Of a DNA stretch of 64,000 nucleotides, positions 36,615 to 37,559 are shown piece after piece. The DNA comes from an uncultured archaeon (GTDB lineage: Archaea > Nanobdellota > Nanobdellia > Pacearchaeales > GW2011-AR1), in assembly GCA_902386025.1 (NCBI GenBank), contig CABMHR010000001.1:35741-99740 (forward strand), read 5' to 3'. Below the pieces are notes generated by a model, which did no database searches, had not been told where the DNA came from, and saw only the letters and a list, made by a program, of their open reading frames with translations. Numbering within the stretch: position 1 is the stretch's first letter; each line of letters starts with the position of its first letter. The position numbers and the translations under genes were made by a program.

Positions 36615-37211
36615 TCATTTTCCCTTCCCCCTAACTCTCACTTTCGTCTTTTTTAGCATTTTTTCCTTGATTTCTTCAGGTATAAATACCCTCTTTTTCC
36701 CATTTTTCTCTATTTCTTCCTCAATTATCTCACTTTTCTGTCTTATTGCATTAATCTGTCCCCTAATTGTAGAACGCTCTTTTCCCAGCATAGCTGCCAA
36801 ATCATCATAACTCAATTTCATTTCTGAATTTAATAGAATCCATAAAATTGCTCTTTCAGTTACTGAAAATTGGCTTAAATTTGGTGTTTGAACAGCTGTT
36901 TGAACAGCTGTTTGAACAGCATAAACACCTGTTTGTTTATTAAACACCTGTTTGGGTGTTTTAAACACCCTGTTTGTTTTTAATTCATTCATTACAGAAA
37001 CAACATTTTTCAATCCTTCAACATCATTTTTCACCGACGACAAAATCTCTTTAATTTCTTCAATTTCTTTTTTTTGCAAATCTTTCTCAGAACCAAGGTG
37101 TTTAATCCATCCGCTTACTGAACTTATATCCTTTTTTACAGATTCAAAACTTTTTCTTGTATCTTCTTTTATCTTATCAATCTCTTTTTTCCCAGTAAAA
37201 AGCCAAAACAT
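36615..37211 (-). CDS. coiled-coil + C-terminal HTH protein (same architecture as 35674..36366)
   Basis: N-terminal coiled coil, then linker VQTAVQTAVQT encoded by a 12-bp tandem repeat. C-terminal FSVTERAILWILL...SYDDLAAMLGKERSTIRGQINAIRQK HTH. Confidence 0.5.
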   Translation of the reverse strand: MFWLFTGKKEIDKIKEDTRKSFESVKKDISSVSGWIKHLGSEKDLQKKEIEEIKEILSSVKNDVEGLKNVVSVMNELKTNRVFKTPKQVFNKQTGVYAVQTAVQTAVQTPNLSQFSVTERAILWILLNSEMKLSYDDLAAMLGKERSTIRGQINAIRQKSEIIEEEIEKNGKKRVFIPEEIKEKMLKKTKVRVRGKGK

Positions 37212-37348
37212 AATATATTATTGCAAAAATCTATTTAAAAATGTTTTGTTTTTAGACGAAAATTTTTGCTTTTTTATCTAAGTTTATTCTTTTTTTCTCT
37301 TCCAAAATATCATCAAAAAATTGGCTGTTTAACAATAAAAAAATAGGC

Positions 37349-37424
37349 AAACAGCTGTTTTAAACAGCGACAAACAGCTGTTTGTTTTTCAAACACCATC
37401 GATAAATCATCTAAACAGCTGTTT
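37349..37424. promoter_or_regulatory. array of three perfect 12-bp palindromes AAACAGCTGTTT (putative operator/iteron)
   Basis: Exact copies at 37349-37360, 37372-37383 and 37413-37424, plus half-sites at 37324, 37362, 37391 and 37432. They lie in the divergent intergenic region. Confidence 0.5.
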
Positions 37425-37559
37425 AATCTTTAAACACCTCAATATACAAAGGCAACCTTAGTGCACAACTGCCGCCAAGCACTAAAAATTAATGCCGAAA
37501 ATTTCTGGGCAAAATAACCTATACAAAATCTTTAAATACTCCCAATAAATCCTTAAGAA

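Follow-up and report, generated by a model that had tools for sequence, protein, structure and literature searches.

The window (the whole stretch of 64,000 nucleotides analysed here) contains an Orc1-type replication origin and, next to it, a block of genes whose order is fixed among relatives: orc1, oriC, a PRC-barrel gene, a 141-aa gene, a winged helix-turn-helix (wHTH) gene, a gene encoding a 230-aa coiled-coil/wHTH protein and a gene encoding a 198-aa protein (Table 1). The orc1/cdc6 gene (32761..33996, minus strand) adjoins the origin and matches NF001625 with 493 bits and TIGR02928 with 413 bits. Within the origin, an ORB-like inverted pair (34095-34117 and 34404-34426) flanks tracts of (TATCT)n and (TATAC)n. 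A 93-aa wHTH protein is encoded by a conserved neighbour at 35338..35619, and the 230-aa gene has an ortholog in 40 of 41 related loci. The 198-aa gene is found in single copy in 112 of the 121 genomes of the order and in 60 of its 62 high-quality genomes.

The 198-aa protein is modeled by AlphaFold2 with a long N-terminal helix or coiled coil (residues 3-79) and a C-terminal winged HTH (residues 117-186), and the linker between them (residues 78-108) is predicted to be disordered (pLDDT <50). No curated family in Pfam or NCBIfam scores above cut-off for the protein, and the weak matches to HTH_11 (20.8 vs 25 bits) and Sta1 (21.4 vs 80) fall below it. Foldseek matches are to generic wHTH folds only (MarR/Fur/Lrs14-type), with E = 1e-4 to 5e-3 and target TM-scores of 0.4-0.6 against MarR/MepR, Fur/PerR, Lrs14/AbfR2 and Sta1; a PDB sequence search together with Foldseek gave nothing closer than this fold. 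Judged from the model, the resemblance to MarR, HTH_11 and Sta1 is at the level of the fold only: the MarR/MepR, Fur/PerR, Lrs14/AbfR2 and Sta1 regulators share the fold of the C-terminal domain, whereas the N-terminal 77-residue helix and the DNA-constrained linker are absent from these families. An exhaustive profile search recovers a narrow family of 402 representatives at E <= 1e-3, with no link to a characterised protein.

Table 1. Features of the locus between the replication origin and the border box (positions in the window).
Feature	Position	Strand	Remarks
Orc1-type replication origin	34000..34560	.	ORB-like inverted pair
230-aa paralogue-like gene, convergent	35674..36366	+	coiled coil, Q/T-rich linker, wHTH
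Gene of the 198-aa coiled-coil/wHTH protein	36615..37211	-	ORF; single-copy core gene of the order
In-gene word array, five sites	36883..36975	-	within gene 36615..37211
In-gene sites, AACAGCTGTT	36891-36900, 36903-36912		
In-gene sites, AACACCTGTT on + strand	36924-36933, 36943-36952		
In-gene site, 11-bp core of 13-bp variant	36964-36974		
Core promoter of the 198-aa gene	37234..37253	-	TATA box and BRE-position stretch
Intergenic word array	37322..37440	.	three perfect 12-bp palindromes and half-sites
Perfect 12-bp palindromes of the intergenic array	37349-37360, 37372-37383, 37413-37424		
Border box AAAGGCAACCTTAGTGCACAA	37448..37468	+	directly distal to upstream array

A palindromic DNA word is repeated both upstream of the 198-aa gene and within it. 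The coordinates given in an earlier sequence-only reading all hold, including the perfect AAACAGCTGTTT at 37349, 37372 and 37413. That reading had asked whether the 12-mer is common throughout the genome; it is not, since the three copies at 37349-37424 are the only three in a whole-genome count (559 kb in four contigs, ~86% complete). With at most one mismatch, AAACAGCTGTTT has seven matches against 0.54 expected, and 0 of 100 shuffles reached seven. The one-mismatch copies lie at 36890 and 36902 (GAACAGCTGTTT) and at 36923 and 36942 (AAACACCTGTTT), and a 13-bp variant, AAACACCCTGTTT, lies at 36963-36975. The locus also holds seven of the ten genome copies of the looser core AACA[GC][GC]TGTT (AACA-SS-TGTT) and all five copies of AACAGCTGTT, and a reversed control pattern occurs nowhere in the genome. 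The tandem of GTTTGAACAGCT described before is present, although it amounts to 2.9 copies and not three, as the third unit ends in a different base. Shuffles and genome-wide counts thus rule out a chance or common word. Across 41 related loci, the density of the word is 5.9/kb upstream of the gene and 4.6/kb within it vs 0.037/kb in the rest of the loci, and 39 of the 41 keep it in both places.

The three AACA-SS-TGTT sites outside the locus are lone sites, one of them within a structured-RNA-like stretch, and look like chance occurrences. A regulon elsewhere is rejected, as only lone sites are found outside the locus in this genome and 10 relatives. Extra copies of AACAGCTGTT in the variable regions of relatives fall in the part of serine-recombinase genes ('Recombinase' domains) that encodes a C-terminal KQLFEQVQ, and probably reflect coding. 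The word is also rejected as an ORB: AAACA-SS-TGTTT differs from the TCCA-N-TGGAAA-type core, which occurs in inverted pairs flanking an AT-rich region.

In this genome, the upstream array spans about -113 to -228 from the ATG, and the half-sites that had been noticed beside its palindromes are indeed present (37324, 37362, 37391 and 37432). Half-site 7-mers show a 25- to 56-fold enrichment. In relatives, the half-sites have a median span of -230 to -133, and one full site or more lies within -40 to -400 in 39 of 41 related loci. The TATA box of the gene, TTTTTAAA (37234-37241, or -30 to -23), is preceded by a conserved AAAACAAAACA stretch at the position of a BRE, and it starts at -28 to -31, mostly at -29, in 39 of 40 related loci. 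The mRNA is presumably leaderless. Because the TATA box lies at -29, the upstream array is outside the mRNA. When related loci are compared, the array overlaps neither BRE/TATA nor the transcription start; it lies well upstream of the TATA box and is therefore no classical promoter-occluding operator, and simple occlusion by the upstream array is excluded. Directly beyond the array, the border box AAAGGCAACCTTAGTGCACAA is a single conserved copy in most relatives and has four copies in this genome, all within 37458-38567. Past it, gene content varies among genomes.

The second array lies at +238 to +321 in the gene, ~450 bp from the upstream array, and encodes the linker NRVFKTPKQVFNKQTGVYAVQTAVQTAVQT (residues 80-109), including the ...KQVFNKQTGVYAVQTAVQTAVQTP... 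that the sequence-only reading had assigned to this ORF. The positions of its sites (+238/259, 278, 299 and 311) are conserved in 39 of 41 loci, and the sites stand in codon phases 0, 1, 2, 2 and 2. Within a single gene, the 12-mer AAACAGGTGTTT encodes KQVF in one place and (Q)TGV(Y) in another; in distant orders, a single gene likewise translates ACAGCTGTCC into both QLS and TAV. In the linker, normalised codon entropy is 0.17 vs 0.55 elsewhere (Mann-Whitney p = 2e-7; the statistics ignore phylogeny), and in pairs below 75% amino-acid identity, 81% of identical four-fold sites in the linker have the same codon vs 52% elsewhere. At the central codon the amino acid drifts among G (52 cases), A (51) and P (16), and the third position is T in 118 of 123 cases vs a background of 34%. 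The three codon phases, the near-frozen synonymous sites and an A/G/P central residue with a constant T all show that the in-gene array is under selection as DNA, and the same observations rule out a protein-level explanation of the repeat. The DNA-level function suggested earlier is thus strongly supported, with the word kept in 39 of 41 loci. The linker DNA of the 230-aa gene (35896-36030) has its own word, TCCA[AG]CA[CG]A / (CAGACA)n, and this DNA (GGA AAT GAA GGG GTT CCA ACA GAC AGA CAG ACA...) is near-invariant at synonymous sites over 38 loci.

The word changes together with the protein. Lineages with the recognition helix ST[ILV]RGQ carry CAAACA-SS-TGT, whereas with the helix VTVRRH the corresponding part of the gene holds arrays of a different palindrome, CGTTCATGAACG / GTTCA (L049, L063, L064 and L065). 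The co-variation of motif and protein that the earlier reading had proposed to look for is therefore found at the subfamily level. Homologues in other orders keep the in-gene word without the upstream array. In most of nine more distant homologues, the stretch about -20 to -150 from the start carries a word array particular to the lineage, the upstream array being less clear in two of them (L053 and L061). The sites are real, unique to the locus, conserved and selected as DNA, and the word co-varies with the recognition helix.

The best reading of the arrays is an autoregulatory operator, which we hold with moderate confidence: both would be docking sites of the 198-aa gene's own product, a flexibly tethered dimer. 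Since the inner cluster is conserved as DNA and not as protein, it is most likely the docking array of the 198-aa protein itself. On this reading, a dimeric winged-helix protein, in all likelihood the product of 36615..37211, would dock on double-stranded DNA at both clusters. Each wHTH would read one half-site, (A)AACA / TGTT(T), and the 2-3 bp at the centre of the site would probably be left uncontacted. The long N-terminal coiled coil may build a dimer or a higher oligomer, with the ~30-residue disordered linker as a loose tether of the two wHTH heads; such tethering would account for the mixture of 12-bp and 13-bp palindromes, divergent TGTTTAAACA junctions and lone half-sites. With one array 100-230 bp upstream of a leaderless promoter and the other 240-320 bp inside the gene, in linker-coding DNA, the product could sense its own concentration. 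It could act as a roadblock to its own transcription, and in this order it may also bridge both arrays, giving a ~450 bp loop around the promoter. We infer the identity of the binder, the sign of the regulation and the looping.

Several known systems share parts of this layout. In phage lambda, the iterons of ori-lambda lie inside gene O, in its linker-coding part. Their binder, the O protein, initiates phage replication, has its DNA-binding domain at the N-terminus and acts at an origin with an adjacent AT-rich unwinding region. In lambdoid phages, the sequence of the sites co-varies with the DNA-binding domain of O. The present gene resembles lambda O in carrying at least four dyad sites (here five, 36883-36975) in the linker-coding DNA of the presumed binder's gene, and two subfamilies show the same co-variation of site and DNA-binding domain as the lambdoid phages. 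Unlike lambda O, the 198-aa gene belongs to the chromosomal core and has an Orc1/ORB origin nearby, its wHTH is C-terminal and follows a coiled coil, a second array lies upstream, and no homology to O is detected. Sequence inspection finds no distinct AT-rich tract adjoining the in-gene array.

Looping in the lac and gal systems uses an auxiliary operator within coding sequence (lacO2 in lacZ, galOI in galE). Here too, dyad sites lie on both sides of the promoter, one set being in the ORF a few hundred bp away, which suits bridging by an oligomeric repressor; as with intragenic auxiliary operators, this second set lies in a coding region and is selected as DNA. The auxiliary operators of lac and gal are single sites in a target gene, whereas here four to five sites occupy the regulator's own gene; unlike in lac and gal, there is no main operator over the promoter, which is an archaeal TATA/BRE promoter with a presumed leaderless mRNA. 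Iteron-regulated plasmid Rep genes, such as P1 RepA with oriR and incA or F RepE, are another comparison. As in those plasmids, arrays of repeated sites flank the presumed binder's gene, an arrangement that serves autoregulation and titration or handcuffing in Rep systems; unlike in them, no Rep family domain is present, the setting is a chromosomal core, and one array is within coding sequence. As in autoregulatory operators in general, clustered dyad sites lie by the gene's own promoter and are conserved with the gene. In contrast to archaeal repressors, no operator lies over BRE/TATA or the transcription start.

A possible alternative, which we regard as tentative, is that the arrays belong to an architectural complex, an origin-proximal element that is centromere-like, chromosome-organising or in control of replication, with regulation at most secondary. 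The distance from the arrays to the ORB-flanked origin is 2.4-3.4 kb, and their block is syntenic with orc1 in most relatives; almost every genome of the order has the 198-aa gene, in one copy; and two convergent genes of the same architecture each have an in-gene word array, which gives three arrays within 1.5 kb. The conserved block also includes a PRC-barrel gene, and proteins of this kind have been connected with cell division in archaea. There are essentially no strong sites outside this one locus; a regulator with strong sites at its own gene alone has no obvious output, so that a purely regulatory role would be odd and an architectural role is favoured on this point. The sites of such a complex would lie in and next to the binder's gene, as ori-lambda does in gene O. 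A further precedent is found in Bacillus subtilis, in which parS lies within spo0J (parB) and parS sites cluster near the origin. Like parS in spo0J, the present sites are palindromes inside the gene of their presumed chromosomal binder, clustered near an origin; unlike in that system, there is no ParB fold, CTPase domain or ParA partner, and dense arrays are confined to one locus. Against an architectural complex, the conserved block lacks a motor gene such as ParA or SegA, neither a ParB nor a Rep fold is found, no AT-rich unwinding element adjoins the in-gene array, and a canonical origin is already present 3 kb away. Family profile searches give no Rep-family domain at the locus, and ParB/ParA families are not found in the conserved block, the only HTH_ParB match being a stray one in 1 of 39 members.

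The two other conserved wHTH proteins encoded next door (35338..35619 and 35674..36366) are alternative candidates for the binder. It is improbable, although three HTH genes are co-conserved in the block, that the sites are bound by another protein, be it the convergent 230-aa coiled-coil/wHTH protein, the 93-aa wHTH protein or a factor encoded elsewhere. In one subclade, the linker word of the 230-aa gene also occurs 2-4 times in the intergenic DNA ahead of the 198-aa gene, and cross-talk of the two proteins is therefore likely. However, from one subfamily of the 198-aa protein to another, word and recognition helix change together, and most of the nine distant homologues have a private array upstream of their own gene, which speaks for the 198-aa protein.

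A role of the in-gene word at the RNA level, as an mRNA hairpin, a site for an RNA-binding protein or small RNA, or a translational pause, with an unrelated intergenic array, is very unlikely. Linker mRNA folds were computed for eight orthologs, one of which (L043) was left out, and several fold better than shuffled controls (z of -2.8 to -4.9). The pairing partners nevertheless differ among orthologs, the all-GG ortholog L034 keeps the words at z = -0.97, and there is no Rfam match, so that a conserved RNA structure is not supported. Moreover, the centres of adjacent copies are identical (GG/GG, CC/CC) and not complementary, and the non-transcribed intergenic array is filled with the same word. 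The least credible reading, already largely refuted, invokes iterons or a centromere of a plasmid or virus, or a slippage-prone repeat in a low-complexity linker whose likeness to the upstream sites is accidental. Within 0.3-3 kb there are indeed a recombinase, an HNH gene and small orphan ORFs, and a 12-bp tandem unit could arise by slippage, but the gene and both arrays sit in a block of the chromosome that is conserved, with variation only beyond the border box, and the number and positions of the in-gene copies are fixed across 41 species, in three codon phases and with frozen synonymous sites. The plasmid- or virus-derived module considered in the earlier reading is contradicted by a single-copy core gene that keeps its synteny with orc1/oriC; a mobile-element origin is ruled out by this synteny and by the distribution of the gene (112 of 121 genomes). 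With 248 bits vs a cut-off of 220, the tyrosine recombinase nearby is classed as the chromosomal XerA equivalog.

No published description of the feature was found in a limited full-text literature check. The locus is a natural case of dual-use coding DNA, whose four to five sites use all three frames of the presumed binder's gene and have persisted in several archaeal orders. The strong conservation of a disordered linker peptide can thus be a by-product of selection on DNA, which calls for caution when protein function is inferred from conservation. Hardly any regulator has been characterised in uncultivated Pacearchaeales-like DPANN archaea, and a candidate protein-DNA pair is now defined for them: the half-site AAACA/TGTTT and the recognition helix KERSTIRGQIN. 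A broader proposal, more doubtful than the feedback reading, is that a lineage-wide DPANN coiled-coil/wHTH family writes its binding array into the DNA of its own disordered linker, whose peptide would be conserved because this DNA is the functional element, and that a complex of two convergent paralogues ~3 kb from oriC may form a chromosome-organising, centromere-like or replication-control centre and not a mere feedback switch. Because the locus is adjacent to oriC in genomes of ~0.6 Mb without known segregation systems in the block, it is a candidate entry to the coupling of replication, segregation and division in these archaea.

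Two arrays of a palindromic word of the type AAACA-SS-TGTTT lie at the gene for a 198-aa coiled-coil/winged-HTH (wHTH) protein, one inside the gene (36883-36975) and one in the divergent intergenic region upstream (37322-37440). The sequence-only reading had reported palindromes in both places, and each of its coordinates was confirmed by direct reading of 35400-38400 and by pattern searches (see table). The 12-mer with at most one mismatch is matched 7 times in the window where 0.54 matches would be expected, a count not attained in any of 100 shuffles. In the assembly (559 kb, 4 contigs, 33% G+C, ~86% complete), all three exact copies of the 12-mer, all five of AACAGCTGTT and 7 of the 10 looser cores AACA[GC][GC]TGTT fall at the 198-aa locus; the refuting condition named in the sequence-only reading, a word common throughout the genome, thus does not hold. 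A reversed control pattern has 0 occurrences in the 559 kb. Within the window, 28-nt units (palindrome, 6-7 nt, AAACACC half-site) are 82% alike between the arrays, which therefore have a composite site architecture in common.

Features at and around the 198-aa locus (window positions)
Feature	Position	Strand or orientation	Remarks
orc1/cdc6	32761..33996	-	493 bits to NF001625
Orc1-type origin region	34000-34560		upstream of orc1; contains the ORB-like pair
ORB-like inverted pair	34095-34117 and 34404-34426	inverted	flanks long (TATCT)n + (TATAC)n pentanucleotide tracts
Block from oriC to the two coiled-coil/wHTH genes	34569-35619		PRC-barrel (PF05239, E = 2.5e-11), 141-aa and 93-aa wHTH proteins
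230-aa gene	35674..36366	+	coiled-coil/linker/wHTH
198-aa gene	36615..37211	-	coiled-coil/linker/wHTH
GAACAGCTGTTT	36890, 36902		inside 198-aa gene; pattern search
AAACACCTGTTT	36923, 36942		inside 198-aa gene; pattern search
AAACACCCTGTTT	36963		13-bp variant inside 198-aa gene; pattern search
Half-sites	37324, 37362, 37391, 37432		upstream array; pattern search
Perfect AAACAGCTGTTT palindromes	37349, 37372, 37413		divergent intergenic region upstream of 198-aa gene; pattern search
CT[TA]AGTGCACA boxes	37448-37468, 37806-37826, 38214-38234, 38547-38567	direct	four copies
Tyrosine recombinase	38758..39588		scores as chromosomal XerA equivalog

Both arrays are conserved. Among 41 related loci of 48-88% protein identity, drawn from different species, AACA-SS(S)-TGTT occurs upstream in 39 and inside the gene in 39, with the in-gene sites at fixed positions (+238/259, +278, +299 and +311). 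The density of the word is 5.9/kb upstream and 4.6/kb in the gene, as against 0.037/kb in the other 269 kb of these loci, and upstream enrichment is 25- to 56-fold for 7-mers of the half-site, for example AAACAGC and GGTGTTT. Many relatives (L008, L018, L028, L030 and others) carry a second conserved palindromic box, TTATCG(A/T)CGATAA / TATCGACGGA, twice, at about -46 and at -190 to -340 relative to the 198-aa gene start, one copy just upstream of BRE/TATA and the other within or distal to the word array. This box, degenerate in the window (37250-37256 and 37399-37410), may be bound by another factor. In the variable regions of relatives, AAACAGCTGTTT turns up as well within HNH-Recombinase / Resolvase-Recombinase genes, in their 3' part (L001:1411 and 2024, L003:1581, L012:71, L027:2329), where it encodes KQLFEQVQ and is probably a coding coincidence; the homologous gene of the window (39888..40310) is without it.

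The in-gene array encodes a linker that reads KQVFNKQT[AGP]VY[AP]VQT[AGP]VQT[AGP]VQTPNL across relatives. The five sites of the window lie in codon phases 0, 1, 2, 2 and 2 (84, 25 and 9 sites per phase over 42 genes), and within one gene the 12-mer AAACAGGTGTTT encodes K-Q-V-F at one place and (Q)-T-G-V-(Y) at another. The residue at the three central codons is variable (G 52, A 51, P 16, T 2, S 1, V 1), while 118 of these 123 codons have T as third base, against a frequency of 34% at comparable codons in the rest of the gene (binomial p = 3e-48, related sequences counted as independent); GCA, GGA and CCA, preferred elsewhere, never occur. The Thr codon ACA is used in 93-100% of cases within the word versus 52% elsewhere, and the KQVF codons CAG (93%) and GTG (88%), G-ending in a 33% G+C genome, compare with 28% and 25% elsewhere. 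Residues 83-109 have a normalised synonymous entropy of 0.17, versus 0.55 for the remainder, HTH included (Mann-Whitney p = 2e-7, again with related sequences counted as independent). Between sequences less than 75% identical in amino acids, 81% of the identical four-fold sites of the linker have the same codon, versus 52% elsewhere. In other orders (L044, L045, L052), GTCCAAACAGCTGTCCAAACA is kept in the corresponding part of the gene and is read, within single genes, as E-Q-L-S-K-Q and Q-T-A-V-Q-T. Together, phases, codon use, entropy, distant pairs and other orders show, by comparative evidence, a constraint acting on nucleotides. The DNA-level function first proposed for the word is strongly supported by its three codon phases, frozen synonymous sites and fixed third-position T, and fixed flanks around a variable centre are the mark of a protein-binding site with two half-sites.

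A role of the in-gene word in RNA is very unlikely. In 39 of 40 loci the start of the TATA box TTTTTAAA falls between -28 and -31, mostly at -29, so the 198-aa mRNA should be essentially leaderless, and the upstream array (median -230 to -133) lies outside it. Adjacent in-gene copies have equal centres (GG/GG, GC/GC, CC/CC), not complementary ones. Predicted linker mRNA folds are often stable (z -2.8 to -4.9); they are a by-product of the palindromes, since the copies that pair differ from ortholog to ortholog and the fold is not significant in the all-GG ortholog L034 (z = -0.97). Rfam gave no match.

The most likely binder of the word is the product of the 198-aa gene itself, because word and recognition helix co-vary, as the sequence-only reading had proposed to check. 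The helix K(E/D)[RK]ST[ILV]RGQ[IV]N is kept, across orders, in every lineage with the CAAACA-SS-TGT word. A sister subfamily has the helix [IV]VTVRRH[IV]N and arrays of a different palindrome, CGTTCATGAACG (half-site GTTCA), at the corresponding place in the gene (nt about 245-340): loci L049 and L063 hold four perfect GTTCATGAAC copies, in L064 (48% identity) nine half-sites fall within 60 bp and there are none upstream, L065 (43% identity) shows the same pattern, and three further representatives have the matching peptide VQSF(M/N)NVQ. Nine distant homologues from other orders of the class (L053-L061) keep the N-terminal helix MFxWFKK...SFxN[IV]KxDM...W with a different wHTH, and in most of them a private word is repeated between about -20 and -150 relative to their own start (for example AACTTAACAATA, GGTCTATAG, ATTGTTTAG, CATTCCCA and CGTCACTGACG; less clear in L053 and L061). 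Several of these loci also have a AACTCTCAC(T)TT motif in common.

An AlphaFold2 model from a 39-sequence alignment predicts one long helix (residues 3-79), a linker with pLDDT <50 (residues 78-108) that coincides exactly with the segment encoded by the in-gene array, and a winged HTH (residues 117-186). Foldseek matches are limited to generic MarR/MepR, Fur/PerR, Lrs14 and ORC2-WH folds. The protein's scores to Pfam HTH_11 and to NCBIfam Sta1 are under the family cut-offs, and no significant hit came from sequence comparison with the PDB.

The source is a small DPANN archaeon, with related records labelled Nanoarchaeota, Pacearchaeota or Woesearchaeota. By its ORB-like pair and pentanucleotide tracts, the region upstream of orc1 is a typical predicted archaeal origin. 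The 41 loci have a fixed gene order: orc1, origin region, PRC-barrel gene, 141-aa gene (uncharacterised), 93-aa wHTH gene, 230-aa gene, convergent 198-aa gene and palindrome array, beyond which gene content varies between genomes. The PRC-barrel, 141-aa and 93-aa genes are co-conserved in 34-39 of the 41 and may form a cell-cycle gene cluster. Of the 121 genomes of the order, 112 have exactly one match to a profile of the 198-aa protein, as do 60 of the 62 high-quality ones, and full-length homologues occur in several other orders of the class. In four relatives (G023, G045, G054, G118) the gene is truncated around residues 83-114 by a contig end. The tandem linker repeat and its edges are thus a place where assemblies tend to break, and artefacts of assembly may account for some apparent absences. 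An exhaustive profile search of 1.84 billion representatives returned 402 relatives only, and the family is thus narrow and lineage-restricted. The suggestion of a plasmid- or virus-derived module is not supported, because this is a single-copy core gene in fixed synteny with orc1/oriC and the nearby recombinase is of the XerA type. The four CT[TA]AGTGCACA boxes, all the copies in the genome, separate small ORFs, two of them paralogues (37871, 38243), before the recombinase gene. Most relatives have a single copy (TTGTGCACTAAGGTTAnCTTAGT) at the border between conserved block and variable DNA; the arrangement resembles a site of recombination or insertion, or an array of cassettes.

The convergent 230-aa gene has a word of its own, TCCA[AG]CA[CG]A plus (CAGACA)n. 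Its linker DNA (35896-36030), GGA AAT GAA GGG GTT CCA ACA GAC AGA CAG ACA RAC MRA CAG ACA, employs the rare codons GGG, GAC and CAG and shows almost no synonymous variation across 38 loci. Its CCAACAGAC is translated in two phases, as V-P-T-D and as N-Q-Q-T. From this comparison the (ACAG)n tract is a conserved element, with no sign in the 38 loci of phase-variable microsatellite behaviour. TCCA[AG]CA[CG]A occurs only inside the 230-aa gene at the source genome's locus; in one subclade (L008, L015-17, L021-22, L035-36, L038), nine relatives in all, 1-4 copies also fall in the intergenic array upstream of the 198-aa gene. Between the two convergent genes, a perfect 22-bp palindrome, TTTATTCGGTTAACCGAATAAA (36383-36404), is probably a bidirectional terminator.

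The in-gene array is the older and more widespread of the two, since homologues in other orders (L042-L048, L052) carry it without an upstream array. The intergenic array is, by this distribution, an addition of the order that holds the source genome, where it is still present at 48-54% protein identity (L038, L041). In locus L050 (G214:C24), ~55 bp of the linker DNA of a 230-type gene, non-repeat flanks included, is duplicated almost exactly at -100 to -40, just upstream of that gene's own start, which suggests that upstream arrays can arise by copying of the in-gene array.

The main weakness of a regulatory proposal is that strong sites are found essentially only at the 198-aa locus, so a purely regulatory protein would regulate itself alone. 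The same confinement speaks for an architectural, centromere-like or replication-control role of the protein-DNA complex, as do its origin-proximal position and the convergent 230-aa paralogue with its own in-gene word; we regard this role as possible and rather unlikely. Features that define ParB and Rep families were looked for in the 198-aa system and not found. The closest known arrangements, none of them homologous, are ori-lambda, set in the segment of gene O that encodes the linker, the operators lacO2 and galOI, the parS site within spo0J, and rep genes controlled by iterons. Under autoregulation, the reading that we favour with moderate confidence, a coiled-coil dimer or higher oligomer would carry two wHTH heads on ~30-residue linkers and would bind AAACA/TGTTT half-sites placed in several ways. 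Negative feedback would result as the occupied in-gene array impedes elongation through the middle of the gene, and in the source genome's order bridging of the two arrays may form a ~450-bp loop around the leaderless promoter.
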